Shown: piece by piece, positions 13,500 through 57,134 of the stretch
How positions within the stretch are numbered: the first letter of the stretch is position 1
Layout of the letters: every line of letters starts with the position of its first letter
Program-made: the position numbers and the translations under genes
Notes under the pieces: generated by a model
Database searches by the model: none
What the model was told of the DNA's origin: nothing
Seen by the model: the letters and a program-made list of their open reading frames with translations, nothing else
NCBI GenBank assembly: GCA_000002445.1
Contig: CP000071.1
Coordinates: 640,001-704,000 of the forward strand
Source of the DNA: Trypanosoma brucei
Lineage: Eukaryota
Direction of reading: 5' to 3'
Length of the DNA stretch: 64,000 nt

Positions 13500-13915
13500 T
13501 GCCAGTGATTATACGTAATGTCTTTGCTACAGGTGATTGTACGATATGACCATACCGACTAAACCAACCGAGATCAATGAGGCATGAAATGTTCCCGCCC
13601 TGTTTTCAATTAAGTGACGGTGTGATTACAGACAGGACGTAAGTGAGTCAATGTCAATATCTCCGTATTACACCATGAGGACTATTGTCCCCCGTGTCTG
13701 ACCGCCGCTTCCACCTCCTCTCTCCCTTCTTTTCTCCTTTCTTGTTTCTTCTCTTTCACTTACACATGATGTCATTTCGTATTCTGCAATACTGACAATA
13801 ACTTGAGCGAGACAAGACATATTTGACTACTGGCAACTGAAACCCGCCACCCTCTCGGATTCTTTGGTCCTCCACTAGTTACTCAACGGTATTTCACTTT
13901 AGCTCAGCGTATATA
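13500..13915 (+). repeat. X element copy 1 (about 416 bp non-coding repeat containing a 64-nt polypyrimidine tract)
   Basis: tgccagtgattatacgtaatgtctttgctacagg ... ctttagctcagcgtata recurs at 17194-17607 and 51294-51710. Confidence 0.85.
13702..13765 (+). promoter_or_regulatory. long polypyrimidine tract (candidate trans-splicing/polyadenylation coupling signal) inside X element
   Basis: ccgccgcttccacctcctctctcccttcttttctcctttcttgtttcttctctttcacttacac; essentially pure pyrimidine for about 64 nt, followed by AG dinucleotides; same tract in all three X copies. Confidence 0.4.
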
Positions 13916-14364
13916 TGAATATAACGTCCACGGAGCTATAAGATGTTCCCATTACCTACCTTTATTGTTATCACGAGGCTCAAAAGAACACACTGAGCGT
14001 GTACCAATGCCCAGTGAGTGGGACAGCCATCGAAGATAAGTGTTTGTTTTACGGCAATGAGGTTCGAATGCGCCTGACGGTTTTTGTCCGACGTGGTGTG
14101 GGAAACGCCTCAAAGAAGTTACTGCACCTACACCTTCATTTTCACGGGTATATATTATCCCTGGTCACTAATTGATGTTTGGTATGTTTAATCTGTCACT
14201 GAACACTACTCACTTGTTTCCCCAGTGTAAGTGTGTTATCTTTCCCGTCTGTGCATTCACATGAATTTTAACTTTTATTACTCATAAATTATGTTTTGCC
14301 TCAATTATATAGACACCGCTTTATACGCAATTTTAAGCAAGGAAGTCCAACAAGGTGAATTATA

Positions 14365-14964
14365 ATGGGTTGTGGAGGTTCAGCTCCTGCTAACAAAGAC
14401 AAGCATGTGGGTGCAGATCCACCAAAACCTTCAGAGCATTCGGAACATTCAAAACCTTCAGATCCTTCAGATCCTGCTGATGCTACTCGATTTAAGCAGT
14501 TTTGCACACTTCCACTACATGACAAGGATAAGCCAGTTGCTGCTGCAGCAATTAGGGTTACCGACCCCAAGTGTATTTCGGATATTTTACCTCCGGAATT
14601 CCTTGAGGGAAAGAAGGTGCATAATGAATTTTGTGCAATTACTCTCTCCTTCGATGATGGAAAGCCGGAGGATGAAGGCCTTTTTGAGAAGTTGAAGGAA
14701 TTGGAAGGTACTTCCATCGAATTGAAACCAACCCATATTGTGATGAATGAAAAAGTCGCCGCCATTGGGGTGTGTAATAATGATGAATTCCCCTGCCAGG
14801 ACGCACACCCGCATATCCTCGTTGCAACTGCTCCAGATGCCACACAGGAAGATATTGATGATGTAACCAAGAAAGGAAAGATTAAGATATTTTGCGCGAG
14901 AAAACTTCCCGATCTGCCACCTGATATCACCATCCCAGGCGAGTTTCGTTTCATGCACTGGTGA
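14365..14964 (+). CDS. acylated 2H-phosphoesterase-like protein, A-type (degenerate H-x-T-x motifs), copy 1 of 4
   Basis: 199 aa. N-terminal MGCGGS has Gly2 and Cys3 for acylation and Ser6, and is followed by a P/S/D/E-rich linker. Clear homolog of gene B over its full length, but motif 1 is FCAITLSFDDG (catalytic His lost) and motif 2 is HPHILVATAP (Thr to Leu). Confidence 0.75.
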   Translation: MGCGGSAPANKDKHVGADPPKPSEHSEHSKPSDPSDPADATRFKQFCTLPLHDKDKPVAAAAIRVTDPKCISDILPPEFLEGKKVHNEFCAITLSFDDGKPEDEGLFEKLKELEGTSIELKPTHIVMNEKVAAIGVCNNDEFPCQDAHPHILVATAPDATQEDIDDVTKKGKIKIFCARKLPDLPPDITIPGEFRFMHW

Positions 14965-16023
14965 GTATTTCCCTGTTCCTTGTGTTTCAATGGTTTCACA
15001 AGAGTACATATGAATTGTTGTAAGTGTGCTGGCAGTTGCTGTTACTCTGATCGATCAAAGAGTTAGTGGTACTGCGCTTCATTACTTTATTACTTTTGCT
15101 ATTTTGTTTTACGAATTTACTTGCCTTTGTCCCTTCTTACTTTCCTTTTGATAACCTTTAGATATTTGCGTGTGGAGGTTTTGGTTTACTGTTATCCACA
15201 TCTGGGGCTATATTCCCTTCATTTGAATTTTATTATTGCGGTATTGACTTTTTCTTTCAAAGAAGATGATGAACATTGGAATAACGAATAGGGACGATAC
15301 GAGGGGAATGAAGAAAAGGCAGAAAAATGATACGGAGAGGAGGGAAAGACAAAATACAAACAACATGTGGGAGAGATATTTTTGCTTTGCTTTGGTTTGA
15401 TATCTGTTTTGTTTGTTTTTTTTCGTTGTGTTCGATGTTTTTTTGATCTTATTTTCCGAGACTTTATTATACAGGATTTGTTTAACTTATGTACTTTATT
15501 ACCTATTGCTTGTGTGCCATTGTTGTGTTACTATGAAACATTTATTGGTGTGGCAGAATAAAATGTGTTTTGGCATTGCTTTCCACAAGTAACCGAAGGG
15601 CACCAAATATTTGCTACGGGAGAGCACTGAAATGAAAGGAAACAACTGAACACACTGAGCGTGTACCAATGCCCAGTGAGTGGGACAGCCATCGAAGATA
15701 AGTGTTTGTTTTACGGCAATGAGGTTCGAATGCGCCTGACGGTTTTTGTCCGACGTGGTGTGGGAAACGCCTCAAAGAAGTTACTGCACCTACACCTTCA
15801 TTTTCACGGGTATATATTATCCCTGGTCACCAATTGATGTTTGGTATGTTTAATCTGTCACTGAACACTACTCACTTGTTTCCCCAGTGTAAGTGTGTTA
15901 TCTTTCCCGTCTGTGCATTCACATGAATTTTAACTTTTATTACTCATAAATTATGTTTTGCCTCAATTATATAGACACCGCTTTATACGCAATTTTAAGC
16001 AAGAAAGTCCAACAAGGTGACTG

Positions 16024-16584
16024 ATGATGGGTTGTGGAGGTTCTAAATTGTCTGCTAAGAGCAAACAAGCGGATGCGGATCCACCAAAGCCTTCAGATCC
16101 TGCTGATGCTCATCGATTTGAGCGGATTTGTACACTTCCACTACATGATGGTGAGAAACCGATGATCTTCGGTGCAATTATGATAAATGATCTTGCCGCG
16201 GTCAGATCCCTTGTGCCTGCAGATTACCTTGAGGGCAAAAATATGCAGGATGAATTTCACATAACTACAATTTATCTTGGGGGGAAACCGCCACAAGACG
16301 ATGAACTTTTCAAAAAGTTACAAACGTTGGAAGGTACTTCCATCCAGGTGGCACCTGTCCGTATCGCGTCCGACGCAAAGGCAACAGCAATTGAAATTCG
16401 TAACAATAACGAATTCCCATGCCAAAATGTACACCCGCACATTACCATTGCTACTGCTCCCGGTGTACCAGCGAAGTATAGCAATGAGCTGCTAAGCAAA
16501 GTAAGCACTGAAACAAGCGACATCAAGGTAATGGAGTTGTCACCTGATGTATCCATTTCAGGTGTGTTTCAGTTTGTGCGGTGA
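16024..16584 (+). CDS. acylated LigT/CNPase-like 2H phosphoesterase, B-type (both H-x-T-x motifs intact); true start probably the second ATG at 16027 (MGCGGSK)
   Basis: 186 aa. MMGCGGSK N-terminus. Motif 1 EFHITTIYLGG matches the canonical 2H pattern h-H-h-T-h-x-[FY]-L-G. Motif 2 HPHITIATAP, about 62 residues later, matches p-H-I-T-h. From LQTLEGTS to the stop it is nucleotide-identical, apart from 3 SNPs, to the 3' end of the 48146..50689 gene. Confidence 0.75.
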   Translation: MMGCGGSKLSAKSKQADADPPKPSDPADAHRFERICTLPLHDGEKPMIFGAIMINDLAAVRSLVPADYLEGKNMQDEFHITTIYLGGKPPQDDELFKKLQTLEGTSIQVAPVRIASDAKATAIEIRNNNEFPCQNVHPHITIATAPGVPAKYSNELLSKVSTETSDIKVMELSPDVSISGVFQFVR

Positions 16585-17193
16585 TGAACACCTCTTTCTT
16601 CATGTTCTTTTCGGTATAACCTACAGAAGTAACGATGAGTACATTAACGGTTGTTGTTTGTTGTGCTCATCGATGAGGCATTAATACCACCCTTTGTTTT
16701 TCCTTTTTTTCTTCTTTGAATCATTAATAAATTTTATCTTGCTTTGTACAAACAATTTTACGTGATTTATTTTGTCCTTAGACGTAGACAATAATTTTGA
16801 TGATAGTGTTTATGTGGACGAATATATTTCTCTCCTTTGCAATTCACGATTGGATCCAAGTATATTGATGGGAACTTGTGACTTAGGGGAAACGAGTGGT
16901 GTGCTGACATGCTCTCGCAGCACTGATATTCCCCCATAATGCTATGCACTCTGAACTGCATGTGTTGTGTCTGTGTGTATGTGTATACATGGTGTGTCGT
17001 ATGTCCTTTTTGTCTCTGTACAACAATAACCTTATACTACGCATCTTGTTACATTCCAACTTTTTCTCTCTAAAAATATACCTAATTTTACAACAAATTA
17101 GGAGGAGGAGGAGTGTGTCTTAACATTGTTTATGTGCCGTATCGTGATGACAGATATTCAGCTGACGCCACACTCATCGGATGTAAGAAAATG

Positions 17194-17607
17194 TGCCAGT
17201 GATTATACGTAATGTCTTTGCTACAGGTGATTGTACGATATGACCATACCGACTAAACCAACCGAGATCAATGAGGCATGAAATGTTCCCGCCCCGTTTT
17301 CAATTAAGTGACGGTGTGATTACAGACAGGACGTAAGTGAGTCAATGTCAATATCTCCGTATTACACCATGAGGACTATTGTCCCCCGTGTCTGACCGCC
17401 GCTTCCACCTCCTCTCTCCCTTCTTTTCTCCTTTCTTGTTTCTTCTCTTTCACTTACACATGATGTCATTTCGTATTCTGCAATACTGACAATAACTTGA
17501 GCGAGACAAGACATATTTGACTACTGGCAACTGAAACCCGCCACCCTCTCGGATTCTTTGGTCCTCCACTAGTTACTCAACGGTATTTCACTTTAGCTCA
17601 GCGTATA
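17194..17607 (+). repeat. X element copy 2
   Basis: Same sequence as 13500-13915 and 51294-51710. Confidence 0.85.
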
Positions 17608-17708
17608 CGTGGTTACCTTGGTGTCGTGCGTGCTTCCTTTCTATGTGTGTGGATTTGTGTTTGTATTCTTCTGTGGTAATAGAGTGAAGTTAAATTAAGG
17701 GGTATTTC

Positions 17709-18335
17709 TTGGTTTTATTATCTTCTTTGTTAGGTCGTAGTGAATTGGAGATGAAGGTGGTGGTCAATGAAATGTCCCAAGTTGTTGAGATTATCACCAA
17801 TGAGGGCGTTATTTCTGTTGAGCTTTATGATACCTTTGCACCCCGTGCTGCCGAGTCGTTTCGCCGATTTGCCGAAAGTGGTCAACTTGATGGTGCTGTT
17901 TTCGACAGAATGGTTCCCACATTCTTGTTAGAGTGCAGACTTTCAGAATTTAGTGTGTATGGTGAACTGGTAGGGAGAGAGGAGAATAATCATTTGCATC
18001 ACACTGGTGCAGGGATTCTCACTTGTTTTGGAACTGTCCTTGAGAGTGGCGCTTTTTTTATTACTCTTGGGCCGCAACCTGAGTTGGATAACGTTTGCAC
18101 CATATTCGGTCGTGTACGGAGTGGTATGCGTGTAGTGGAGAAGATTAGTCGGTCTCGTGTAGCTGAAAAAACGTTTCGTCTTTATACTCCGGTAGTGGTT
18201 GAGCGGTGTTTAACGCGAGTCTTGCCAAAGGAGCGGAGACCTGAATGTGTGGGAGGGGAACAGTTGGACGTCCTGCCGCAGTCTGTGAGTCGACACTGTG
18301 GAACACAGAGTAGTATCTTGAATGATTTGGAGTGA
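17709..18335 (+). CDS. divergent cyclophilin-like (PPIase-fold) protein; true start possibly internal Met at 17751
   Basis: VELYDTFAPRAAESFRRFAESGQLDGAVFDRMVPTFLL matches the cyclophilin N-terminal pattern hELh.D.hP.TA.NF..L......Y.G..FHRhIP.F. The QGGD motif is replaced by ECRLS, so it is probably not an active PPIase. Confidence 0.5.
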   Translation: MVLLSSLLGRSELEMKVVVNEMSQVVEIITNEGVISVELYDTFAPRAAESFRRFAESGQLDGAVFDRMVPTFLLECRLSEFSVYGELVGREENNHLHHTGAGILTCFGTVLESGAFFITLGPQPELDNVCTIFGRVRSGMRVVEKISRSRVAEKTFRLYTPVVVERCLTRVLPKERRPECVGGEQLDVLPQSVSRHCGTQSSILNDLE

Positions 18336-18651
18336 TGAGGACGAATATGCGGGTTTTTACGATCTGGTGAGCCTTTAGAGTCCCTCACCTTTGTTTTGTT
18401 CCCTTTAAGATTGTCTTGGGTAAATTTAAATGGACACCATGTGACTGCCTTGGTTGATGAAAGCAATACCGGTTGTGCTTTCCGTTGTAGAATTACACGA
18501 AACTAATCATTACTTCTCCTTTGTTGCTTTCCGTTTCCTTTATTGCTTGGCTTCTACACCCTCGCCGTTGGAGGTGAGTGAGCAGAGTTGGACACTTCCT
18601 ACATATATATATTTTTGCTTCCTGTTTGCTTCTTCTCTCGTGTGAAGCCAT

Positions 18652-19149
18652 ATGCTAAGTGACGATACCTGTCAACCAGAGGCGGTGCTCTTTGGCATGC
18701 TGGGTGCGGCTGCCTCTTTGGCGCTCTCCAACATTGGGGCCGCTTACGGTACAGCGAAATCTGGCGTTGCCGTTGCTCATCTCGGCATTGTGGAACCATC
18801 ACGTGTAATGCGTGGCATTGTGCCTGTTGTCATGGCAGGTATTCTTGGTATATACGGCCTTATTGTCTCAGTTATTATCAGCAACAACCTCAAGCTGTCG
18901 GGCTACGCAATGTTCTCCGGCTTCATGCACCTTGGCGCTGGTCTTGCCGCCGGCTTTGCTTCTCTGGCGAGTGGTTATGCTATTGGTATTGTGGGTGACA
19001 TTTGTTGTTTTGCATACGCCAAGACAGAAAAGATATTTGTCCCAATGATTTTGATGCTCATTTTTGCTGAGGCGCTTGGGCTCTATGGGCTCATCATGGC
19101 CCTCTTAATGAACAACCGTGCCACATCCTATACGGGTGGTTGCTCTTGA
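18652..19149 (+). CDS. V-type H+-ATPase 16 kDa proteolipid subunit c
   Basis: 165 aa with four TM helices, [10 protein letters not shown] and [11 protein letters not shown] motifs, and a conserved Glu in TM4 ([11 protein letters not shown]); classic Vma3/ATP6V0C. Confidence 0.9.
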
Positions 19150-19960
19150 CCAAGTTAGACGGAGCGAGGGCTAACGGAGAGAATAACCCCCCTAGGAAGA
19201 ATGGGAAAGAAAGAAAGAGAGAAAAGGTTGGATGAAGAATAGTTGCTCTGGTGCCAAACCATGCGACACAGAGTGGAGGGGATTTGAGTGGCGGGCTGAA
19301 GCACGAGAGGTAAAGTTCGTGAAAAGGATGACCAACAACTTGTGAGAATGTATCAATAAAGGTGTTGGTCCCGACAGAAGGTGAAAAAACTGGGTGTATC
19401 TGATTCGGGAACAGCACCGAAAGAAGGGGGAAATGCATTACTTTTGACAGGTTTCCGGGATGGTTAGAGGAAAACAACACTGTAGGAGAGTATTTTTGAG
19501 TGAATTCTGCAAAGTGTGTCATCTTTGTTGGCATGACCGCGTGGCTGCCTGTTTCCCCGTCTGTATCTACTTTTTGTGTGCGTATGTGTACATGTGCTTT
19601 TCTTCACTCCTATGTGCTTGTGCTGACAGTGCTGCTCGCCCCTTCACTTCCCGAGAAAAGGAATGTTGTACACCACTTGCTCGTTACCCAGATGTGTGGC
19701 TAACTTCTTCTTCACTCAATATTTGATGCGAAAGTCTATGCCATATAACGGGAAGTAAAAATTTACGTAGCAGCCCCGTGAGAGAACTTTGCATCGTGTA
19801 GTATATTAGGAGAGGAGGGGACGGGAGGCAATAAATCCGCAAGTTCCTCACAGAGTGGAAAAAAAACAAGGGGAAGGGAAAGCGAGAACGCAAGGACACA
19901 CGTGGGGAAGCGTGCACGGTTTCTCCCACGGTTATTTCACCCTTGTGTACAAGCTGAAAT

Positions 19961-21034
19961 ATGCAGGGCGCGACAGTCAGCGCGCCGAATTTTCGCCCGC
20001 CGACGGAGCTTTTGGATGAAGTACCGCAACCAGAAGGCTCCTCGTGGTGGCTGCAGACAAGTGCCGCACGGCTTCAATCCTTCGAATTACGCATGCTGCA
20101 CGCCATAAAATATAGGCAGGGGTTCGTCGCTGGATTGAACACAATTACGACACTGGGACTGCAACAGAGCGCTGCTAACAGCAGTAAGGAAATCATGGTC
20201 CTGATTCATGGTTTTGCAGGAGGATTAGCCTGTTGGGCACAGAATTGGGAGTTTCTCTCTGAGCATTATATTCTTTGTGCCCTCGATTTACCCGGTTTCG
20301 GCCGAAGTATGCGGCCTAATGTGACTGCAAGAACCCCGAGGGAGGTACTGGATTTTTTCTGTCAGTGCCTTGATGACTGGTTTGGTGAGATGAGGTTCAA
20401 AATTCCTGTCATTTTGGTTGGCCACTCCTTTGGTGCCTATATAGCGGCGCATTATTCCATGCGTCGTGGCCCATCTTGTGTGCGACTGTTAGTGTTTGTG
20501 GATCCGTGGGGTGTAAACAGAAGGGACCAATCTGGATCCAAAAGGGTTCCATTCACGTGGCGCCTCGCCCTCAGTATTGCTAATAGAATGAACCCGCTTA
20601 CACTCGTACGTGCAGCTGGTCCTTTGGGTCCACTTTTCTTCCGGCTAATACGACCGGATTTCGCAAACCGCTGGCGTGGTTATCTGCCGGACCCCGTTAC
20701 CTTCTACGAGTATACATATCACTGCAACGCGCAGCTGCCGCCGCTTGGAGAAGAACTATTTAAGATTTGCTATCATCATGACATTACTGCTAAGGAGCCG
20801 CTGGAAGATGAACTACCATCATCTTTGTCTAAAGATATACCGTTGGTACTGCTGTACGGAAGTGAGACGTGGATGGACGCAGAGCGGGGCACCACCATGG
20901 CCGACAAAATGGAAGGCATGGGTTTCAAGGTGGAAGTAGACACAGTGATGAGTGCAGGCCACCAGGTGTTTACAGATAATCCGTCTGAGTTCAACAACAA
21001 ACTTTTGCTGGCACTTGCTGAGTTGTTGGCCTAA
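19961..21034 (+). CDS. alpha/beta-hydrolase fold protein, ABHD4/ABHD5 (CGI-58)-like
   Basis: VLIHGFAGGLACWAQNWEFL resembles the ABHD5 HGFGGG..W motif; nucleophile elbow GHSFGAY; 357 aa. Confidence 0.7.
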   Translation: MQGATVSAPNFRPPTELLDEVPQPEGSSWWLQTSAARLQSFELRMLHAIKYRQGFVAGLNTITTLGLQQSAANSSKEIMVLIHGFAGGLACWAQNWEFLSEHYILCALDLPGFGRSMRPNVTARTPREVLDFFCQCLDDWFGEMRFKIPVILVGHSFGAYIAAHYSMRRGPSCVRLLVFVDPWGVNRRDQSGSKRVPFTWRLALSIANRMNPLTLVRAAGPLGPLFFRLIRPDFANRWRGYLPDPVTFYEYTYHCNAQLPPLGEELFKICYHHDITAKEPLEDELPSSLSKDIPLVLLYGSETWMDAERGTTMADKMEGMGFKVEVDTVMSAGHQVFTDNPSEFNNKLLLALAELLA

Positions 21035-21501
21035 ACAGGTAGTGACGGTCTCAGAGTAAACTGCGCTTCCCAATGAAGGGGTGAAAAATGCTGTGCACGT
21101 AGATGAAAGGTGCAGCGCGATGAGGCACATTCGATGCAGAAACTTCAACCATGATGTATTGTACTTGATCTACTGCTAGTTTCTGTCATTTTTATCCTTA
21201 GCTTTCCTTTTTTATTATTATTCCCGTTAGTTTTTGTTTTATAGCGGGGTGGTAAAAAAAAAATTGTGTGTGTTCACACCTCTTCCCAGATCATTTTATA
21301 TCATTACTTGCACAGCCGAAGCTAATTTCACAGTTCCGTATTCCATCATTCTTGCTGCCGCCACACCGGAAAAATTGAAGTTGCAAATACACTTATCGTC
21401 TTCTTTTTTTTTCAGCAGCTTCCCCTTACGCAACAAATAGAAGCATAGGGCATACATATATCACTGTTTGTATATAGAAGTTGCAGGGTTTATTGCCTTG
21501 A

Positions 21502-22602
21502 ATGTGGGAAGAAACGTACGTACGCGCCTGCGCGAACCTCGGCGTGCAGCCGCGAAATGAGGTTCTTGCGGCTGTGGGTGGCACTGCGCAGTTATGTGGA
21601 AACACATTTGCGAACTTTGAAAACCGCTTAACCGATGAGGAGCTCGCTGCCCTATGCGAAACCTGCCGTCAGATTTCTCTTGTAGCCGTCGTCCGCCTTC
21701 CCTACAATAACATCACTTGTCGGGGCGCGACCGCTTTGGCAAAAGCTATGAAAGAAGGGTTCAGTACACTACAGTACCTTGACTTGTCCTACAACTCTAT
21801 TAATGAAGAGGGTGCAAACGCTATTGCCGCGGCGGCAACTAATTATGAAATGTTGTCAACACTGTTACTAAATGGCAATCCCATTGGCGGTGGGTCAGGT
21901 CCATGTCTAAAGACTCTTCTGGAAAGCGAGAATACCCAACTGGTGACACTTGACCTCGAACAAACTGACCAGGGCTTAAAGTCGCTCGTCCACATTGCGA
22001 GAGGTTTGGTCCACAACACGACGCTCACTACGTTGAACCTTGGCCGCCCCCTCATGACGAACCCGATGGATGTGAGCTACGTCGTGGAGCATCTTTCTCT
22101 CGCCCTGAAAGAAAACCGAACACTACGGTTTTTGGGGTTGAGCCACTTCAATATGGCAGATTGTGATCTGGCATTATTACTCTCTACGCTGCGCGACTCG
22201 GCGGTAACAACACTCTCACTGAAAGGCAACAAATTATCTCAAGCTTCAGGTGAACCTCTCGCCCAACTACTGGCGCACAGGCCTGACTTTCTTTCGCTGG
22301 ACGTAACGGCGAATCGGCTGCGGGATGTCGGCGCACTCGCAATTGCTGCAGTCATCGCCAATCATCCAGGGTTGCGCGAGCTGCAGATTGGCTTTAACAC
22401 AATCGGTGGAGTCGGCATTTCCGCACTCGCTCAGTCGCTGGCGGCAAATGCCTCAATCACTACATTAAAGCTGTGGGGTAATGATCTCACCGATGAGTCG
22501 GTGAGGGACCTATATGCTATACGAGGCCGATTCGAATCGATGGAAGTTACAGACTTCAGTTTCTATGTTGTGGATGGTTGTCCTATGGTGGCAAGGGAGT
22601 AG
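21502..22602 (+). CDS. leucine-rich repeat protein (ribonuclease-inhibitor/NLRC3-like LRR)
   Basis: Repeating about 28-aa units L..L.L..N.IG..GA.ALA.AL..N..L (LQYLDLSYNSINEEGANAIAAAA, LRELQIGFNTIGGVGISALAQSLAAN, LKLWGNDLTDESV). Confidence 0.7.
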   Translation: MWEETYVRACANLGVQPRNEVLAAVGGTAQLCGNTFANFENRLTDEELAALCETCRQISLVAVVRLPYNNITCRGATALAKAMKEGFSTLQYLDLSYNSINEEGANAIAAAATNYEMLSTLLLNGNPIGGGSGPCLKTLLESENTQLVTLDLEQTDQGLKSLVHIARGLVHNTTLTTLNLGRPLMTNPMDVSYVVEHLSLALKENRTLRFLGLSHFNMADCDLALLLSTLRDSAVTTLSLKGNKLSQASGEPLAQLLAHRPDFLSLDVTANRLRDVGALAIAAVIANHPGLRELQIGFNTIGGVGISALAQSLAANASITTLKLWGNDLTDESVRDLYAIRGRFESMEVTDFSFYVVDGCPMVARE

Positions 22603-38808: not shown

Positions 38809-38809
38809 C

Positions 38810-38854
<45 letters not shown>
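38809..38854. repeat. (TA)10 followed by (GT)13 compound microsatellite
   Basis: tatatatatatatatatatgtgtgtgtgtgtgtgtgtgtgtgtgt. Confidence 0.9.
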
Positions 38855-38857
<3 letters not shown>

Positions 38858-44927: not shown

Positions 44928-45950
44928 ATGAAATTCAAAGCAACAGTACGAGATCGCCGGATGTTAGTGGCCCTGTGTGAGGCATGCCGCCGCTCGGAGA
45001 ACGGTGGTGTCGTTTTAAAGCTTCACGCATCACGGATTCGTGTTTTCACGCGCACTCGGGCCGGGAGCGACATACAGGTTGTTGCTGTTTGCCGCACAGA
45101 TGTTGTTTTTGGTGAATTCAAGGCGCAGCTTGCTGGAAGGAACTCTAGATCCAAGGCTGCGGCAGAGGACGATGCAGATGATGGCGATGCGATATACTGT
45201 GAAATAGCGGACACAAGACGGCTGACACACGTGTTACGGCAGTCGGAACGTTGCCAATTAATCTCCATCAAACTGTCGACCAACCAAAAACGTCGACCGG
45301 TACTTCGAGTGTCTCTGGGAGACACGCAGACAAACCTCGACGTAAGTCACGACGTCCCCGTGGAGGTGTTAGGGTCCAATGAGGCAAGAAGCCTTAGTGC
45401 TCCCTCGCTAAGCTGTGCCGCGAGGCCGCTGGTGCTAGACGGACTTCTTGAACTGGCAACATTTGTGGATAGGGCCCGGTGCGCCTCCTGTGAGCAGGTT
45501 ACATTCTCCGCGTGGAAAAACAAAAGCAGCAGCAAAGGTAGTAAGGACTGCAACAATGCTGGTTCACCTGTCTACACTCTCCTCATTGAAGCAGAATGCT
45601 TTCTCGGTAGTTTTGCTCTTGAATACAATTCCCTAACAGTGGCGAAGGAGGGCGAGGAAGAGGAAGAGGAAGAGGAGGAGGAGGAGGAGGAAGAGAAAGA
45701 AGGAGCCGAGGGGGCTCCAGGAACACCTGGCGACACCGAAAGCTTTGTGGAAGCGCAAGGAAGTAAACAGGGGCCTCTTTTAGCCAGCGTTACGGTAGAG
45801 GCGAGGGCGCTCGCACGGTTTTTGCCCATTCGTGATTTGACAGTGGATTTCGTATGGTTGTACCTCGATCACCAAAAGGCAATTGTCATGTACATCTGTG
45901 CCTCCGGATGCACAAAGCTTTTGGGTTGCATACCGGCTGTAACAAATTGA
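44928..45950 (+). CDS. HUS1: HUS1-like checkpoint clamp (9-1-1 complex) subunit with an inserted poly-Glu acidic stretch
   Basis: [14 protein letters not shown]... start matches the HUS1 N-terminus MKF(R/K)A..VD. [42 protein letters not shown] parallels HUS1 [47 protein letters not shown] parallels HDIPIKVI. Start chosen at the ATG after the pyrimidine tract. Confidence 0.55.
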   Translation: [340 protein letters not shown]

Positions 45951-48145: not shown

Positions 48146-50689
48146 ATGGACGCGCAAGTTGGAGTTGTTCAGCAACCGGTGACCACTAGTTCAACGATTT
48201 GGGTTGGGGAATGTCAATGTCCAAAATGGAAAAAATCTACCCACCGTGCGGTTGAGCAAAACCTGACGACTTCACTAGAATGCGGTGGAGAAAGAGATGC
48301 ACTCCTTGATGTTGCTTGCGGAAGTGGCATTGACATAGATTCTTTCCTTAGAGAGAAGTGGATTCGTGTAGCATTTACTTCTAGTTTCGGAAGTAACAGT
48401 AGGGTCCGCGTGCGGGCGAGAAGGGTGAGGATAGGTAGCCATGAGTTTGTCGTGGTGGAACGGAACGTTTTTGGGTGTGATGACTCGGTATATCGAAAGG
48501 ATAACAAACTTTGGGAGGGTTTGCCCCGTGGGCAGGCCTGCGTATTTGTCGAATCGGGCGACAGGGCTGGGTTTATACCCATAGGTAGACTTCAAGGCCT
48601 GCGGAAGTTCAATTCCTTCGACGGACCATATGGTATTAGGGGAAGGCAACCCGTTAGTGCTGTTGCGATGGAGGCCATCGACGGGGACTGTGGTCATATC
48701 TCTGCGTTCGTGCACACTGGAGAGCGGTATTGGCTTGTTGGGAACAAAGATACTCACCTATTAGTAAGCTTCAGTGTACCAGAGAAAGATATATTCTCCA
48801 ACACCGCCGAAGGTGGTGCCATAACGAATGAGGGGGACAAGCCACTTCAGGGGGCTAACTATTCACCTCCGTCGCTAGCGGTGCGGATAGCAAGGCTCTG
48901 GGGTCAAACGCTTCGAGCACTTCCCGATGAAAAATCATTCGGTTTGCATGAGTTTTTGTCTTCAAACAGGTACACGGCTTGCTTCGACGCTGTGCTACAG
49001 GACTGTGGACACCTTGTCGACTACGGTGAAGATGAACTTCTACAGTTTTACGCTCTGACCCAAAGTGGTGAATCGCTAGCAGAGGGCTTGTGCGTGGATC
49101 CAGTTAGCGCTATAGTAAACCTGCAGTCCTTTGGTCTTCGTGTAGTCCCCTTCCATAGTGAGCAATGCTCATCAGTACCTGAAATTCTGGATCTTGGAAC
49201 GGACGAGTATTCGCAGTACGGGGGCCAGGTTGCGCGTCGTCTGAACTGCAGAGGAGCGGTTATGTACGGCTTGGACGCCCAGGGCATTGTGGTTCGGTTG
49301 TGGAAGTTACCTTCGCACGCATACGTGGTTGAGCGTGCGGCACAGGAGGCCATTGTGACGCATCGCCTGAGCGGTACCGTCTTGCGCGACAAGTTGCGGA
49401 GGAAGTTAGACCGCTTGCCGAAAGAAATACGACGATGTGTCACTGAATGGAGTTCAGCCCGTCTTGAGCCATTGTTGAACCTTGCAGCGTGGTTGCACAT
49501 TATGGGGAAAGTAACACCGGAGGTTGGCCTCGATGGATTGCAGGAGGTCCGTCGCAGTTGGATAACACTTCAACAGCAACTTGTGAAGCACACAAAGGAC
49601 ATGCGTGAGCACTTACAACTGTACGAGCCCCCAGTGGCCGAGGCAGCTATCAATAACCCGGACGTCATCATGTGTGTGGGGCCACAAGGTTGTGGCAAGT
49701 CCACGTTTTGTCGCGCTTTCTGTGTCTTACTCCAGAAGGTAGGTCAGAAGCCTCGTTGGATCAACCAGGACGAAGTGGGTGGTCGAAATGAGTTTATCGA
49801 GGCCATCCGACGTGCCAAGGAATCCGACTGTACACATATTCTTATAGATAAAATGAATCTTGACGATGCGGCACGAAATGCTGACTACGCCTCTTTCAAC
49901 CTAAAAACGATAACCGTCGCTTGGGTACATCCTTGTGATGTAGACGTTATGGTAAGTACGTGCCTAGAAAGAGTATGCCATCGCGGCAATGCACATCGCA
50001 CATTCAGAGGAACCGTCTCCCCGGGGAAAAAGAGGAAAATGATGACAATTATCCGTGGGTGTGTACAGCGATGCGAACCACCAACAACAGGGATTGTTAT
50101 TGAGGCCAATGTCTTGGACCCCCCGGCCATAACCATAGAATCTGTGTGGAAAGGTCTCTGCCGACACACAATGTCTGAACTTCCAGATATTAAAGATCTT
50201 TCCGTTGCCGACGCGTTGGAAATTGCTCGTAGGTACGAATTACTCTTGTCACACTCATCGCGTCCCTTCAATTGCGGCATCATAAAGGTTGTGAATTCAG
50301 AACTTCTTGTCGCCCTTGTGCCTGCAGATTACCTTGAGGGCAAAAAAATGCGCAAGGAACTCGACATCAGCACAATCTATCTTGGTGACAGATCCCATTT
50401 CGATCTTACGCTTCTGTCAGAGTTACAAACGTTGGAAGGTACTTCCATCCAGGTGGCACCTGTCCGTATCGCGTCCGACGCAAAGGCAACAGCAATTGAA
50501 ATTCGTAACAATAACGAATTCCCATGCCAAAATGCACACCCACACATTACCATTGCTACTGCTCCCGGTGTACCAGCGAAGTATAGCAATGAGCTGCTAA
50601 GCAAAGTAAGCACTGAAACAAGCGACATCAAGGTAATGGAGGTGTCACCTGATGTATCCATTTCAGGTGTGTTTCAGTTTGTGCGGTGA
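48146..50689 (+). CDS. multidomain protein: about 480-aa N-terminal domain, then polynucleotide-kinase-like P-loop, then C-terminal LigT/CNPase-like 2H domain. The architecture resembles CNPase and the kinase-CPD module of Trl1-type tRNA ligase
   Basis: Walker A VIMCVGPQGCGKSTF at about aa 510, with downstream D-x-x-N-L-D (HILIDKMNLDD). The C-terminal 150 aa are homologous to genes A and B: motif 2 HPHITIATAP is intact, motif 1 is ELDISTIYLGD (His to Asp). The last about 260 nt and the 3' flank are identical to gene B. Confidence 0.7.
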   Translation: MDAQVGVVQQPVTTSSTIWVGECQCPKWKKSTHRAVEQNLTTSLECGGERDALLDVACGSGIDIDSFLREKWIRVAFTSSFGSNSRVRVRARRVRIGSHEFVVVERNVFGCDDSVYRKDNKLWEGLPRGQACVFVESGDRAGFIPIGRLQGLRKFNSFDGPYGIRGRQPVSAVAMEAIDGDCGHISAFVHTGERYWLVGNKDTHLLVSFSVPEKDIFSNTAEGGAITNEGDKPLQGANYSPPSLAVRIARLWGQTLRALPDEKSFGLHEFLSSNRYTACFDAVLQDCGHLVDYGEDELLQFYALTQSGESLAEGLCVDPVSAIVNLQSFGLRVVPFHSEQCSSVPEILDLGTDEYSQYGGQVARRLNCRGAVMYGLDAQGIVVRLWKLPSHAYVVERAAQEAIVTHRLSGTVLRDKLRRKLDRLPKEIRRCVTEWSSARLEPLLNLAAWLHIMGKVTPEVGLDGLQEVRRSWITLQQQLVKHTKDMREHLQLYEPPVAEAAINNPDVIMCVGPQGCGKSTFCRAFCVLLQKVGQKPRWINQDEVGGRNEFIEAIRRAKESDCTHILIDKMNLDDAARNADYASFNLKTITVAWVHPCDVDVMVSTCLERVCHRGNAHRTFRGTVSPGKKRKMMTIIRGCVQRCEPPTTGIVIEANVLDPPAITIESVWKGLCRHTMSELPDIKDLSVADALEIARRYELLLSHSSRPFNCGIIKVVNSELLVALVPADYLEGKKMRKELDISTIYLGDRSHFDLTLLSELQTLEGTSIQVAPVRIASDAKATAIEIRNNNEFPCQNAHPHITIATAPGVPAKYSNELLSKVSTETSDIKVMEVSPDVSISGVFQFVR

Positions 50690-51293
50690 TGAACACCTCT
50701 TTCTTCATGTTCTTTTCGGTATAACCTACAGAAGTAACGATGAGTACATTAACGGTTGTTGTTTGTTGTGCTCATCGATGAGGCATTAATACCACCCTTT
50801 GTTTTTCCTTTTTTTCTTCTTTGAATCATTAATAAATTTTATCTTGCTTTGTACAAACAATTTTACGTGATTTATTTTGTCCTTAGACGTAGACAATAAT
50901 TTTGATGATAGTGTTTATGTGGACGAATATATTTCTTTGCAATTCACGATTGGATCCAAGTATATTGATGGGAACTTGTGACTTAGGGGAAACGAGTGGT
51001 GTGCTGACATGCTCTCGCAGCACTGATATTCCCCCATAATGCTATGCACTCTGAACTGCATGTGTTGTGTCTGTGTGTATGTGTATACATGGTGTGTCGT
51101 ATGTCCTTTTTGTCTCTATACAACAATAACCTTATACTACGCATCTTGTTACATTCCAACTTTTTCTCTCTAAAAATATACCTAATTTTACAACAAATTA
51201 GGAGGAGGAGGAGTGTGTCTTAACATTGTTTATGTGCCGTATCGTGATGACAGATATTCAGCTGACGCCACACTCATCGGATGTAAGAAGATG

Positions 51294-51710
51294 TGCCAGT
51301 GATTATACGTAATGTCTTTGCTACAGGTGATTGTACGATATGACCATACCGACTAAACCAACCGAGATCAATGAGGCATGAAATGTTCCCGCCCCGTTTT
51401 CAATTAAGTGACGGTGTGATTACAGACAGGATGTAAGTGAGTCAATGTCAATATCTCCGTATTACACCATGAGGACTATTGTCCCCCGTGTCTGACCGCC
51501 GCTTCCACCTCCTCTCTCCCTTCTTTTCTCCTTTCTTGTTTCTTCTCTTTCACTTACACATGATGTCATTTCGTATTCTGCAATACTGACAATAACTTGA
51601 GCGAGACAAGACATATTTGACTACTGGCAACTGAAACCCGCCACCCTCTCGGATTCTTTGGTCCTCCACTAGTTACTCAACGGTATTTCACTTTAGCTCA
51701 GCGTATATAT
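51294..51710 (+). repeat. X element copy 3
   Basis: Same sequence as 13500-13915. Confidence 0.85.
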
Positions 51711-52158
51711 GAATATAACGTCCACGGAGCTATAAGATGTTCCCATTACCTACCTTTATTGTTATCACGAGGCTCAAAAGAACACACTGAGCGTGTACCA
51801 ATGCCCAGTGAGTGGGACAGCCATCGAAGATAAGTGTTTGTTTTACGGCAATGAGGTTCGAATGCGCCTGACGGTTTTTGTCCGACGTGGTGTGGGAAAC
51901 GCCTCAAAGAAGTTACTGCACCTACACCTTCATTTTCACGGGTATATATTATCCCTGGTCACTAATTGATGTTTGGTATGTTTAATCTGTCACTGAACAC
52001 TACTCACTTGTTTCCCCAGTGTAAGTGTGTCATCTTTCCCGTCTGTGCATTCACATGAATTTTAACTTTTATTACTCATAAATTATGTTTTGCCTCAATT
52101 ATATAGACACCGCTTTATACGCAATTTTAAGCAAGGAAGTCCAACAAGGTGAATTATA

Positions 52159-52758
52159 ATGGGTTGTGGAGGTTCAGCTCCTGCTAACAAAGACAGGCAT
52201 GTGGGTGCAGATCCACCAAAACCTTCAGAGCATTCGGAACATTCAAAACCTTCAGATCCTTCAGATCCTGCTGATGCTACTCGTATTCACAAAATCTGTA
52301 CACTTCCACTACATGACAAGGATAAGCCAGTTGCTGCTGCAGCAATTAGGGTTACCGACCCCAAGTGTATTTCGGATATTTTACCTCCGGAATTCCTTGA
52401 GGGAAAGAAGGTGCATAATGAATTTTGTGCAATTACTCTCTCCTTCGATGATGGAAAGCCGGAGGATGAAGGCCTTTTTGAGAAGTTGAAGGAATTGGAA
52501 GGTACTTCCATCGAATTGAAACCAACCCATATTGTGATGAATGAAAAAGTCGCCGCCATTGGGGTGTGTAATAATGATGAATTCCCCTGCCAGGACGCAC
52601 ACCCGCATATCCTCGTTGCAACTGCTCCAGATGCCACACAGGAGGATATTGATGATGTAACCAAGAAAGGAAAGATTGAGATATTTTGCGCGAGAAAACT
52701 TCCCGATCTGCCACCTGATATCACCATCCCAGGTGAGTTTCGTTTCATGCACTGGTGA
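52159..52758 (+). CDS. acylated 2H-phosphoesterase-like protein, A-type, copy 2
   Basis: 199 aa; differs from copy 1 at a few residues (ATRIHKICTLP vs ATRFKQFCTLP; KGKIEIF vs KGKIKIF). Confidence 0.75.
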   Translation: MGCGGSAPANKDRHVGADPPKPSEHSEHSKPSDPSDPADATRIHKICTLPLHDKDKPVAAAAIRVTDPKCISDILPPEFLEGKKVHNEFCAITLSFDDGKPEDEGLFEKLKELEGTSIELKPTHIVMNEKVAAIGVCNNDEFPCQDAHPHILVATAPDATQEDIDDVTKKGKIEIFCARKLPDLPPDITIPGEFRFMHW

Positions 52759-53821
52759 GTATTTCCCTGTTCCTTGTGTTTCAATGGTTTCACAAGAGTA
52801 CATATGAATTGTTGTAAGTGTGCTGGCAGTTGCTGTTACTCTGATCGATCAAAGAGTTAGTGGTACTGCGCTTCATTACTTTATTACTTTTGCTATTTTG
52901 TTTTACGAATTTACTTGCCTTTGTCCCTTCTTACTTTCCTTTTGATAACCTTTAGATATTTGCGTGTGGAGGTTTTGGTTTACTGTTATACACATCTGGG
53001 GCTATATTCCCTTCATTTGAATTTTATTATTGCGGTATTGACTTTTTCTTTCAAAGAAGATGATGAACGTTGGAATAACGAATAGGGACGATACGAGGGG
53101 AATGAAGAAAAGGCAGAAAAATGATACGGAGAGGAGGGAAAGACAAAATACAAACAATATGTGGGAGAGATATTTTTGCTTTGCTTTGGTTTGATATCTG
53201 TTTTGTTTGTTTTTTTTTCGTTGTGTTCGATGTTTTTTTGATCTTATTTTCCGAGACTTTATTATACAGGATTTGTTTAACTTATGTACTTTATTACCTA
53301 TTGCTTGTGTGCCATTGTTGTGTTACTATGAAACATTTATTGGTGTGGCAGAGTAAAATGTGTTTTGGCATTGCTTTCCACAAGTAACCGAAGGGCACCA
53401 AATATTTGCTACGGGAGAGCACTGAAATGAAAGGAAACAACTAAACACACTGAGCGTGTACCAATGCCCAGTGAGTGGGACAGCCATCGAAGATAAGTGT
53501 TTGTTTTACGGCAATGAGGTTCGAATGCGCCTGACGGTTTTTGTCCGACGTGGTGTGGGAAACGCCTCAAAGAAGTTACTGCACCTACACCTTCATTTTC
53601 ACGGGTATATATTATCCCTTGTCACTAATTGATGTTTGGTATGTTTAATCTGTCACTGAACACTACTCACTTGTTTCCCCAGTGTAAGTGTGTCATCTTT
53701 CCCGTCTGTGCATTCACATGAATTTTAACTTTTATTACTCATAAATTATGTTTTGCCTCAATTATATAGACACCGCTTTATACGCAATTTTAAGCAAGGA
53801 AGTCCAACAAGGTGAATTATA

Positions 53822-54421
53822 ATGGGTTGTGGAGGTTCAGCTCCTGCTAACAAAAACAGGCATGTGGGTGCAGATCCACCAAAACCTTCAGAGCATTCGG
53901 AACATTCAAAACCTTCAGATCCTTCAGATCCTGCTGATGCTACTCGTATTCACAAAATCTGTACACTTCCACTACATGACAAGGATAAGCCAGTTGCTGC
54001 TGCAGCAATTAGGGTTACCGACCCCAAGTGTATTTCGGATATTTTACCTCCGGAATTCCTTGAGGGAAAGAAGGTGCATAATGAATTTTGTGCAATTACT
54101 CTCTCCTTCGATGATGGAAAGCCGGAGGATGAAGGCCTTTTTGAGAAGTTGAAGGAATTGGAAGGTACTTCCATCGAATTGAAACCAACCCATATTGTGA
54201 TGAATGAAAAAGTCGCCGCCATTGGGGTGTGTAACAATGATGAATTCCCCTGCCAGGACGCACACCCGCATATCCTCGTTGCAACTGCTCCAGATGCCAC
54301 ACAGGAGGATATTGATGATGTAACCAAGAAAGGAAAGATTAAGATATTTTGCGCGAGAAAACTTCCCGATCTGCCACCTGATATCACTATCCCAGGTGAG
54401 TTTCGTTTCATGCACTGGTGA
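53822..54421 (+). CDS. acylated 2H-phosphoesterase-like protein, A-type, copy 3
   Basis: 199 aa; ANKNRHVG variant, KGKIKIF. Confidence 0.75.
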   Translation: MGCGGSAPANKNRHVGADPPKPSEHSEHSKPSDPSDPADATRIHKICTLPLHDKDKPVAAAAIRVTDPKCISDILPPEFLEGKKVHNEFCAITLSFDDGKPEDEGLFEKLKELEGTSIELKPTHIVMNEKVAAIGVCNNDEFPCQDAHPHILVATAPDATQEDIDDVTKKGKIKIFCARKLPDLPPDITIPGEFRFMHW

Positions 54422-55484
54422 GTATTTCCCTGTTCCTTGTGTTTCAATGGTTTCACAAGAGTACATATGAATTGTTGTAGGTGTGCTGGCAGTTGCTGTT
54501 ACTCTGATCGATCAAAGAGTTAGTGGTACTGCGCTTCATTACTTTATTACTTTTGCTATTTTGTTTTACGAATTTACTTGCCTTTGTCCCTTCTTACTTT
54601 CCTTTTGATAACCTTTAGATATTTGCGTGTGGAGGTTTTGGTTTACTGTTATACACATCTGGGGCTATATTCCCTTCATTTGAATTTTATTATTGCGGTA
54701 TTGACTTTTTCTTTCAAAGAAGATGATGAACGTTGGAATAACGAATAGGGACGATACGAGGGGAATGAAGAAAAGGCAGAAAAATGATACGGAGGGGAGG
54801 GAAAGACAAAATACAAACAATATGTGGGAGAGATATTTTTGCTTTGCTTTGGTTTGATATCTGTTTTGTTTGTTTTTTTTTCGTTGTGTTCGATGTTTTT
54901 TTGATCTTATTTTCCGAGACTTTATTATACAGGATTTGTTTAACTTATGTACTTTATTACCTATTGCTTGTGTGCCATTGTTGTGTTACTATGAAACATT
55001 TATTGGTGTGGCAGAATAAAATGTGTTTTGGCATTGCTTTCCACAAGTAACCGAAGGGCACCAAATATTTGCTACGGGAGAGCACTGAAATGAAAGGAAA
55101 CAACTAAACACACTGAGCGTGTACCAATGCCCAGTGAGTGGGACAGCCATCGAAGATAAGTGTTTGTTTTACGGCAATGAGGTTCGAATGCGCCTGACGG
55201 TTTTTGTCCGACGTGGTGTGGGAAACGCCTCAAAGAAGTTACTGCACCTACACCTTCATTTTCACGGGTATATATTATCCCTGGTCACTAATTGATGTTT
55301 GGTATGTTTAATCTGTCACTGAACACTACTCACTTGTTTCCCCAGTGTAAGTGTGTCATCTTTCCCGTCTGTGCATTCACATGAATTTTAACTTTTATTA
55401 CTCATAAATTATGTTTTGCCTCAATTATATAGACACCGCTTTATACGCAATTTTAAGCAAGGAAGTCCAACAAGGTGAATTATA

Positions 55485-56084
55485 ATGGGTTGTGGAGGTT
55501 CAGCTCCTGCTAACAAAGACAGGCATGTGGGTGCAGATCCACCAAAACCTTCAGAGCATTCGGAACATTCAAAACCTTCAGATCCTTCAGATCCTGCTGA
55601 TGCTACTCGTATTCACAAAATCTGTACACTTCCACTACATGACAAGGATAAGCCAGTTGCTGCTGCAGCAATTAGGGTTACCGACCCCAAGTGTATTTCG
55701 GATATTTTACCTCCGGAATTCCTTGAGGGAAAGAAGGTGCATAATGAATTTTGTGCAATTACTCTCTCCTTCGATGATGGAAAGCCGGAGGATGAAGGCC
55801 TTTTTGAGAAGTTGAAGGAATTGGAAGGTACTTCCATCGAATTGAAACCAACCCATATTGTGATGAATGAAAAAGTCGCCGCCATTGGGGTGTGTAATAA
55901 TGATGAATTCCCCTGCCAGGACGCACACCCGCATATCCTCGTTGCAACTGCTCCAGATGCCACACAGGAGGATATTGATGATGTAACCAAGAAAGGAAAG
56001 ATTGAGATATTTTGCGCGAGAAAACTTCCCGATCTGCCACCTGATATCACCATCCCAGGTGAGTTTCGTTTCATGCACTGGTGA
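55485..56084 (+). CDS. acylated 2H-phosphoesterase-like protein, A-type, copy 4
   Basis: 199 aa; identical to copy 2. Confidence 0.75.
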   Translation: MGCGGSAPANKDRHVGADPPKPSEHSEHSKPSDPSDPADATRIHKICTLPLHDKDKPVAAAAIRVTDPKCISDILPPEFLEGKKVHNEFCAITLSFDDGKPEDEGLFEKLKELEGTSIELKPTHIVMNEKVAAIGVCNNDEFPCQDAHPHILVATAPDATQEDIDDVTKKGKIEIFCARKLPDLPPDITIPGEFRFMHW

Positions 56085-57134
56085 GTATTTCCCTGTTCCT
56101 TGTGTTTCAATGGTTTCACAAGAGTACATATGAATTGTTGTAAGTGTGCTGGCAGTTGCTGTTACTCTGATCGATCAAAGAGTTAGTGGTACTGCGCTTC
56201 ATTACTTTATTACTTTTGCTATTTTGTTTTACGAATTTACTTGCCTTTGTCCCTTCTTACTTTCCTTTTGATAACCTTTAGATATTTGCGTGTGGAGGTT
56301 TTGGTTTACTGTTATCCACATCTGGGGCTATATTCCCTTCATTTGAATTTTATTATTGCGGTATTGACTTTTTCTTTCAAAGAAGATGATGAACGTTGGA
56401 ATAACGAATAGGGACGATACGAGGGGAATGAAGAAAAGGCAGAAAAATGATACGGAGAGGAGGGAAAGACAAAATACAAACAATATGTGGGAGAGATATT
56501 TTTGCTTTGCTTTGGTTTGATATCTGTTTTGTTTGTTTTTTTTTCGTTGTGTTCGATGTTTTTTTGATCTTATTTTCCGAGACTTTATTATACAGGATTT
56601 GTTTAACTTATGTACTTTATTACCTATTGCTTGTGTGCCATTGTTGTGTTACTATGAAACATTTATTGGTGTGGCAGAATAAAATGTGTTTTGGCATTGC
56701 TTTCCACAAGTAACCGAAGGGCACCAAATATTTGCTATGGGATAGCAATTTAAATGCAGGGAAGGTGAAGGAGGGCAATAATTGGACAATGTAATTTTTT
56801 TTTACTGTTATGTGTTCGATTTGGGTAGGAAAATGTGATTGTGGGAGCTTGTCCTGGGGTGATGGAGGTATTTTTCATTTTTTTGTGATGGTAATGATTT
56901 TTTTTTTTTTGGTCGGCCCTTTGTGTCAACTAGCATCTTCTTTGGAGTAGGTGCATATGTGCGTGCAGCTGCTTTTTAGTGAGCACCTCGTGTTTTAAGT
57001 GTCTTTTTTTATTATACCTTTTTGCTATTACCTTCTTGTTTTTTGCTTTTGAAACGTTTTTGATAATACACTAAAAGAGTAGACAGAAAACAGTAGTTGG
57101 TATATAGAAGAACTTATTAGTCGCTTCTCGAGTT

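Follow-up and report, generated by a model that had tools for sequence, protein, structure and literature searches.

The direct repeats bracketing the MRPA-PTR1 block of Trypanosoma brucei are probably two sites of one snoRNA and protein-gene repeat family kept alike by gene conversion

The 64,000-nt window analyzed here was assigned by exact protein look-ups to chromosome 8 of Trypanosoma brucei brucei TREU927 (record of 2,481,190 bp), and every gene treated in it lies on the + strand. The window contains a unique block of genes, MRPA and PTR1 among them, that is flanked on both sides by long direct repeats. In a preliminary description of the same stretch these repeats had been likened to those of the Leishmania H locus and proposed as a substrate for amplification or deletion of the enclosed genes. 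The genes listed there between the repeats (cyclophilin, V-ATPase c, ABHD, LRR, MRPA, Yip1, PTR1, RING, HUS1, TrpRS and PNK-2H) were borne out by Pfam matches and source names, with the exception of a supposed second LRR gene, for which Pfam matched only a cyclic-nucleotide-binding domain. The enclosed segment, which had been put at 33 kb, was found as a unique interval measuring 32.7 kb (Table 1).

The repeats were mapped by self-BLAST of the window and divided into modules. Module A is an element of 415 bp; U is a tandem unit of 1662/1663 bp carrying an open reading frame (ORF) of 199 amino acids (aa); U' is a partial U; T-I comprises the last ~380 coding nt of the PNK-2H gene (Tb927.8.2250) and a 0.6-kb spacer; and x is the segment between U' and T. 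The left block, situated between the BEACH gene and cyclophilin, reads A-U-U'-x-T-I-A. The right block, which starts in the 3' end of Tb927.8.2250, reads T-I-A-U-U-U, and its high-identity portion begins at 50421, near the 50429 given in the preliminary description. Positions 13499-16097 match 51293-53892 with 98.2% identity over 2.6 kb, 16316-17607 match 50421-51707 with 99.1% identity over 1.29 kb, and the tandem U units on the right are mutually 99.3-99.5% identical; between 16098 and 16315 the left block hardly matches the right one, if at all. The copies are all direct repeats, and self-BLAST of the window gave no inverted ones. Multi-kb matches at 97-99% identity cannot have arisen by chance. 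Two direct multi-kb repeats had thus been correctly recognized, and direct repeats of 1.3-2.6 kb do flank a block containing MRPA and PTR1. They do not form one simple collinear pair, however, as the order of the modules differs between the blocks and several register offsets separate them (34,100/34,105 bp and 37,794/39,457/41,120 bp).

Table 1. Positions of the repeat modules, their genes and the neighboring genes in the window
Feature	Position	Strand	Basis
Left block, A-U-U'(partial)-x-T-I-A	13499-17607	+	Self-BLAST; collinear with IVM-t1
Module A, copy 1 (415 bp)	13499-13913	+	Self-BLAST
Three conserved blocks of module A copy 1 (77-91 nt)	13506-13582, 13618-13708, 13766-13856	+	Cross-species conservation
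Left tandem unit U	13987-15641	+	Self-BLAST
TB8Cs3H1 in left U	14057-14119	+	Rfam RF01550
199-aa U ORF, left (AAZ12974; Tb927.8.2070 by our numbering)	14365-14964	+	Cluster look-up, alignment
Partial unit U' (93-95% identical to U)	15648-16097	+	Self-BLAST
TB8Cs3H1 in U'	15719-15781	+	Rfam RF01550
Tb927.8.2080 (AAZ12975), 186-aa stand-alone CPD (2H) protein	16024-16584	+	Pfam tRNA_lig_CPD PF08302, 2.2e-11
Unconverted 74-nt patch over first 2H catalytic motif	16242-16315 (left), 50347-50420 (right)	+	Alignment
Left T-I-A past patch (CPD-coding 3' end, 0.6-kb spacer, A copy 2)	16316-17607	+	Alignment
Module A, copy 2	17193-17607	+	Self-BLAST
Right block, T-I-A-U-U-U	50313-56763	+	Self-BLAST
Module A, copy 3	51293-51707	+	Self-BLAST
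Right array, three U units starting at 51781, 53444 and 55107 (period 1663 bp)	51781-56763	+	Self-BLAST
TB8Cs3H1 in the three right U units	51851-51913, 53514-53576, 55177-55239	+	Rfam RF01550
199-aa U ORFs, right (AAZ12993-5)	52159-52758, 53822-54421, 55485-56084	+	Cluster look-up
Unique block, 32.7 kb (cyclophilin through 5' part of PNK-2H)	17608-50312	+	Pfam, source names
MRPA	27841-32586	+	Pfam ABC_membrane/ABC_tran; exact match to 'multidrug resistance protein A'
PTR1	37937-38743	+	Pfam SDR; exact match to PTR1 crystal-structure chains 2VZ0
PNK-2H gene Tb927.8.2250 (847 aa)	48146-50689	+	Pfam DUF7920, tRNA-ligase-type kinase and CPD
BEACH protein gene	4458-13307	+	Pfam / source names
Cyclophilin	17751-18335	+	Pfam / source names
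V-ATPase c	18652-19149	+	Pfam / source names
ABHD	19961-21034	+	Pfam / source names
LRR protein	21502-22602	+	Pfam / source names
Cyclic-nucleotide-binding protein	23075-24613	+	Pfam domain match; source names agree
Yip1	36674-37243	+	Pfam / source names
RING protein	39752-44239	+	Pfam / source names
HUS1	44805-45950	+	Pfam / source names
TrpRS	46483-47904	+	Pfam / source names

This architecture is not an artefact of the TREU927 assembly. The same order is found on both sides of the block in T. b. equiperdum IVM-t1, an independent assembly at chromosome level, and TREU927 and IVM-t1 each carry the block once, in unrearranged order. The right-hand array contains three U units in TREU927, compared with one in IVM-t1 (13641-15297 of the retrieved stretch) and one in T. 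b. gambiense DAL972 (6826-8482 of the retrieved stretch), a difference that may be true variation in copy number or may come from repeats collapsed in the latter two assemblies.

Each U or U' unit carries one copy of the H/ACA small nucleolar RNA (snoRNA) TB8Cs3H1, five in total, which was recognized by Rfam family RF01550 with 80.5 bits (threshold 45). TB8Cs3H1 is also present in the IVM-t1 and DAL972 copies of the unit, and orthologous matches of 64-68 bits were obtained in T. melophagium and T. vivax. The three conserved blocks of module A align collinearly with T. melophagium at 75-78% (E 1e-10 to 4e-17), are partly matched in T. vivax and T. grayi, and carry C-box-like (GTGATTA/ATGATGT) and D-box (CTGA) motifs. 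The TB8Cs3 cluster includes the C/D snoRNAs TB8Cs3C1-C3, which guide 2'-O-methylation of ribosomal RNA (PMC9283944). Conservation, box motifs and the name of the cluster suggest that the three blocks are probably TB8Cs3C1-C3, in which case module A and TB8Cs3H1 together would make up the snoRNA cluster TB8Cs3. The tandem period of the cluster, given above for T. brucei, is 673 bp in T. melophagium and ~1126 bp in T. vivax.

The protein encoded by U matched no Pfam family at E<=0.001. Twelve relatives were found among 1.8 billion representative proteins, one of which was its own cluster; the other 11 were kinetoplastid CPD-type sequences, either the C-termini of full-length PNK-2H proteins or short CPD proteins. 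U matched PNK-2H C-termini with phmmer E values of 1e-11 to 1e-19 and is 42% identical to Tb927.8.2080, the stand-alone CPD protein of the left block. Both H-x-T motifs of U are degenerate in the alignment (C-A-I-T and H-I-L-V). U is a CPD-derived, degenerate paralogue of the 2H phosphoesterases and probably not an active 2H enzyme. U proteins begin with MGCGGS, which resembles an N-myristoylation/palmitoylation signal, followed by a Pro/Ser/His-rich linker. Searches of 5.8 and 1.8 billion proteins turned them up in the T. brucei group alone. A U member is listed by one source as 'Proteasome maturation protein 39A', although the basis for the name was not found. The left U gene of IVM-t1, annotated with 212 aa, carries a 9-nt deletion as well as a 1-nt gap.

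Tb927.8.2080 (gene ID from PMC7952579) was found by alignment to be a mosaic, with a U-like N-terminus (the 5' end of the ORF lies within U'), a middle part of its own and a C-terminus sharing 99% identity with Tb927.8.2250. Both H-x-T motifs are retained, as H-I-T-T and H-I-T-I. In Tb927.8.2250 itself Pfam found DUF7920, tRNA_lig_kinase and tRNA_lig_CPD only, and no ligase domain. Its identification as the tRNA ligase Trl1 was rejected, as the characterized TbTrl1 is a different protein of 870 aa with KLAG/TKH ligase motifs and HVTV at 739 and 802; the label PNK-2H used in the preliminary description is apt. The first 2H motif of Tb927.8.2250 is D-I-S-T in TREU927 and IVM-t1, and the orthologues in T. 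congolense, T. vivax, T. melophagium and T. cruzi, as well as Tb927.8.2080, have H-[IV]-T-[TN] at this position. CPD activity may have moved from Tb927.8.2250 to its stand-alone paralogue Tb927.8.2080.

The repeats noticed in the preliminary description are real, but their gene content, the snoRNA cluster TB8Cs3 and an array of CPD-derived protein genes, had been missed. Concerted evolution is usual in trypanosome snoRNA clusters and tandem arrays. That the blocks are genes of these kinds is sufficient alone to account for their repetition and near-identity.

Sequence exchange between the blocks was examined by aligning the modules across TREU927, IVM-t1 and DAL972, the last for the U unit only. 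Within the U units, 13 sites grouped the copies by strain and none grouped them by position; within T-I-A past the 74-nt patch the corresponding counts were five and zero, giving 18 strain-grouping sites against no position-grouping site outside the patch. Left and right U copies differ at 19-24 positions within a strain, and copies from the same position differ at 34-40 positions between strains. The prevalence of strain-grouping over position-grouping sites indicates that the blocks recombine, at least by gene conversion, and that they have exchanged sequence since TREU927 and IVM-t1 diverged. Judged from these alignments, the blocks are undergoing concerted evolution by gene conversion across 34-41 kb. 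The 74-nt patch has the opposite pattern: left and right copies differ at 34 of its 74 positions, and 32 sites group by position and none by strain. The patch sits 34 nt from the edge of homology. It was not accepted as a pair of frameshifts, being a run of substitutions instead. Selection acting on the patch was likewise not adopted as its sole cause, since a heterology barrier near the edge of homology is enough to explain it.

The explanation that fits these observations best, and that is held to be highly likely, is that the two blocks are two sites of one composite repeat family, consisting of TB8Cs3, the CPD-derived genes and the 3' end of PNK-2H with its spacer, which are kept alike by conversion. 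The small protein genes would derive from the C-terminal 2H/CPD domain of the neighboring Tb927.8.2250. The cluster would have stood first at the cyclophilin side, the PNK-2H-side copy and the CPD-derived genes being added later, and repeated mutual conversion over the distance between the blocks would keep the copies 97-99.5% identical. A crossover between the direct repeats would either delete 34-41 kb and release a circle, or duplicate the MRPA-PTR1 block in tandem. Homozygous loss is expected to be lethal, and the duplication could raise the dosage of MRPA and PTR1. Only the duplication would be tolerable, because the deletion removes V-ATPase c, TrpRS and PTR1, which we take to be essential. 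The potential for amplification would then be a side-effect of the architecture, and is a reasonable prediction.

The order in which the two sites arose was considered by comparison with other Trypanosoma species. The gene order of the block is conserved in T. vivax and T. melophagium. A single T. vivax contig reads BEACH - (A, H1, A) - cyclophilin ... PTR1 ... TrpRS - PNK-2H - ~220-aa genes, and this contig has neither a CPD remnant on its left side nor a snoRNA on its right, nor any repeat common to the two. In T. melophagium the snoRNA unit is found in tandem upstream of cyclophilin and again 1.2 kb downstream of PNK-2H. These two sites (JAJSEB010000027.1, ~28.6 kb and 68.4 kb; 6802-7899 and 13609-14259 of the respective retrieved stretches) are direct repeats of 0.5-0.57 kb, 99.7% identical and 39.7 kb apart, and are homologous to module A and TB8Cs3H1 of T. 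brucei. Because it is present there in both species, the snoRNA cluster upstream of cyclophilin is read as ancestral; the second site and the CPD-derived genes are lineage-variable. In T. melophagium a DGF-1 gene (943-5838 of the retrieved stretch) precedes the snoRNA cluster, in the place occupied by BEACH in T. brucei and T. vivax, and in T. cruzi (PRFC01000152.1) DGF-1 genes adjoin the block on both sides of a TrpRS fragment and PNK-2H.

Stand-alone CPD proteins were also found outside T. brucei. In T. grayi (contig JMRU01000934.1, 1-980 of the stretch) an A-type C/D sequence is followed by a stand-alone CPD gene of 178 aa and then by ~220-aa genes. T. congolense has a stand-alone CPD protein of 182 aa with nearly the same C-terminus as the full-length PNK-2H of this species, a sign that concerted evolution may operate there too. 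The possibility that these short proteins are assembly fragments was dropped for both species, because snoRNA sequence immediately precedes the gene in T. grayi and the T. congolense protein has an N-terminus of its own. The short T. cruzi CPD sequences P0070, P0073 and P0074 are probably assembly fragments.

These comparisons bear on a different origin for the left block, namely that it is a scar left by an earlier amplification from the PNK-2H/snoRNA region, whether as a tandem duplication or as a circle that re-integrated. The left block does look like the right one circularly permuted (A U U' / T I A versus T I A U U U) and is bounded by two copies of A, and Tb927.8.2080 is a U/PNK-2H chimera at the U'-x-T joint. 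However, the arrangement A - H1 - A upstream of cyclophilin is ancestral, being shared by T. vivax and T. melophagium, so that no integration is needed to account for the terminal A copies; on the same ground, Campbell-type integration of a circle was dropped as their explanation. The presence of stand-alone CPD genes in T. grayi and T. congolense allows that Tb927.8.2080 may itself be old, its two ends having been replaced through conversion, and region x, which would belong to the joint, is unlike U and only weakly like PNK-2H. The scar is therefore considered unlikely, and the composite family with its ancestral site at cyclophilin is preferred.

No crossover products were evident in the TREU927 or IVM-t1 assemblies, and two further assemblies that look rearranged are best explained as assembly errors. 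In DAL972, chromosome 8 (FN554971.1, 498293-518958) runs from BEACH through A and one U to the 219-aa and downstream genes, continuous and with no Ns, and is without the 41.1 kb that correspond to positions 13987-55107 of the window. The flanking genes have consecutive accessions (CBH13222-13224), and none of the ten enclosed genes looked up (PTR1, MRPA, cyclophilin, RING, LRR, cyclic-nucleotide-binding, PNK-2H, TrpRS, ABHD and Yip1) has a DAL972 protein on record. Taken at face value, this would mean that the 41.1 kb were lost from one homologue of DAL972 by a U x U or A x A crossover. However, the join falls within ~950 bp (A and the 5' part of U) that hold no sites diagnostic of left or right, exactly where collapse is expected, and this length, by our estimate, exceeds a typical Sanger read. 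The assembly is an 8x Sanger/Phrap one, with the order of its contigs set against TREU927, and the genes we expect to be essential would allow hemizygous loss at most. For these reasons the absence of the block from DAL972 is best explained as a repeat-induced omission of assembly, and a true deletion is regarded as improbable.

A related observation comes from Richardson et al. (2016), who mapped reads to DAL972 and found as 'MRPA' only the paralogue Tbg972.4.2470 on chromosome 4. This is what a deletion would lead one to expect. The chromosome 4 paralogue was scored as 'MRPA' because the DAL972 reference is without the true gene. The heterozygous single-nucleotide polymorphisms of Tbg972.4.2470, which are identical in all strains (Richardson et al., 2016), look like mis-mapped reads of the true MRPA and so speak against the deletion. 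A broader proposal would combine a genuine crossover product in DAL972 with bracketing by TB8Cs3 that is old or recurrent in trypanosomes and retained for reversible duplication. Such bracketing is seen in T. brucei and T. melophagium and has a parallel in the repeat-flanked H locus of Leishmania, and a right-block-like order is seen in T. grayi; this proposal is given little credence.

The T. equiperdum OVI scaffold CZPT02000952.1 (34,478 bp) is circularly permuted, consisting of ~21420-50385, ten Ns and 15972-21411 (window positions). It was rejected as a circle or tandem junction, because the join is a 10-N gap inside the repeat followed by left-specific U', and a scaffolding artefact is the best explanation for the permutation. 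The T-I-A copy of OVI has left-block flanks but the right-type 74-nt patch, a mixture that could be due to short-read bubble collapse or to real conversion. Within the block, the RING gene holds an internal direct repeat of ~210-220 bp (41367-41589 / 41757-41979; 91-94% identity, 390-bp spacing).

The preliminary description had treated the blocks as a substrate for recombination, and exchange between them is seen in the site patterns, although crossover products are not evident. It could nonetheless be that the direct repeats excise or duplicate the MRPA-PTR1 block at appreciable frequency and that this is used under arsenical or antifolate pressure, as at the Leishmania H locus. The direct repeats around MRPA and PTR1 are long and 98-99% identical, they demonstrably interact, and in T. 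melophagium the block is likewise flanked by a homologous snoRNA repeat, whereas T. vivax has the block but no right-hand repeat. Ubeda et al. (2014; PMC4028189) catalogued 773 repeats and 1,848 potential amplicons in T. brucei and obtained polymerase chain reaction products for repeat-mediated rearrangements at four other loci, on chromosomes 2, 3, 6 and 7; they emphasized that T. brucei is not seen to amplify, perhaps because circles do not replicate. The chromosome 8 MRPA-PTR1 locus is not mentioned in the text of that study or in the supplementary material consulted. Against regular use of the repeats, the block is single-copy in both TREU927 and IVM-t1, TbMRPA was not overexpressed in T. 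b. rhodesiense lines after two years of selection with melarsoprol or pentamidine, and resistance in selected lines arose from loss or alteration of AT1 and AQP2/3. A search of the literature on copy-number change at Tb927.8.2160 or the gene IDs of the array returned nothing relevant, and neither chromosome 8 nor MRPA is mentioned by Mulindwa (2021). As the gene content of the repeats also accounts for their existence, an amplification cassette in regular use is thought very unlikely.

Several points weigh against the preferred explanation of a composite family maintained by conversion. Rare crossover products cannot be revealed by assemblies, so that 'no amplification' here refers to assemblies and to statements in the literature. 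An Rfam search of module A at E<=1 returned no C/D family. The strain-grouping sites come from the assemblies of TREU927 and IVM-t1, to which DAL972 adds a third for U only, and consensus polishing could have homogenized the IVM-t1 copies; TREU927-specific states common to its four U copies nevertheless still require homogenization. Finally, the right-hand snoRNA copy may be old or may have been gained twice, and either site may have been the donor.

The genes and the snoRNA were already known, as were repeat-bracketed loci as a class. No description was found in the literature of the bracketing of MRPA-PTR1, its snoRNA nature, the long-range concerted evolution or the T. melophagium counterpart. 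The locus clearly illustrates concerted evolution over >34 kb of a trypanosome core chromosome, with snoRNA clusters acting as long-range homology, and this is useful for the interpretation of copy number and structural variants. If crossovers occur, they would provide a route to higher MRPA/PTR1 dosage, which would matter for tolerance to arsenicals and antifolates, and would run against the view that T. brucei does not amplify genes. A practical consequence is that T. b. gambiense reads mapped to DAL972 will miss or mis-call genes of the block, including MRPA, PTR1 and TrpRS.

The closest comparison is with the H locus on chromosome 23 of Leishmania (MRPA/PGPA and PTR1), where direct repeats likewise surround MRPA, a Yip1-type gene and PTR1, and where a circle or tandem duplication by homologous recombination is likewise predicted. 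The gene order of the T. brucei block presumably differs from that of Leishmania, and the block is larger and includes genes that we expect to be essential. The repeats are a snoRNA cluster and protein-gene units in T. brucei, but short intergenic repeat elements in Leishmania. The Leishmania amplicons are observed, selectable and replicating, whereas no amplification of any locus is documented in T. brucei. The pair described here is of the same kind as those catalogued by Ubeda et al. (2014), a long direct repeat pair in a core chromosome that predicts rearrangement, although the loci tested there were different. The AQP2/AQP3 chimera and the TbAT1 deletion are alike in being drug-relevant and in involving homologous recombination of neighboring paralogues; they are, however, loss-of-function events between adjacent genes, and what is envisaged here is a hypothetical gain of dosage across 34 kb, which has not been observed.

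The repeats themselves resemble other trypanosomatid snoRNA clusters in their H/ACA and C/D-like content, tandem reiteration, Trypanosoma-wide conservation and concerted evolution. They differ in that the TB8Cs3 unit of T. brucei has grown to 1.66 kb through acquisition of a CPD-derived ORF, in that the two sites are 34-38 kb apart, and in that A is present in only three of the six units. Tandem arrays of T. brucei (Jackson 2007, PMC1855330; Jackson et al. 2010, PMC2854126) also have near-identical paralogues, copy-number differences between strains (here three U units against one), mosaic conversion tracts and assembly collapse; this array and its gene IDs were not found in the main text of either paper. 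A difference is that conversion at this locus links two sites on either side of a unique block of 32.7 kb and is not confined to one array.

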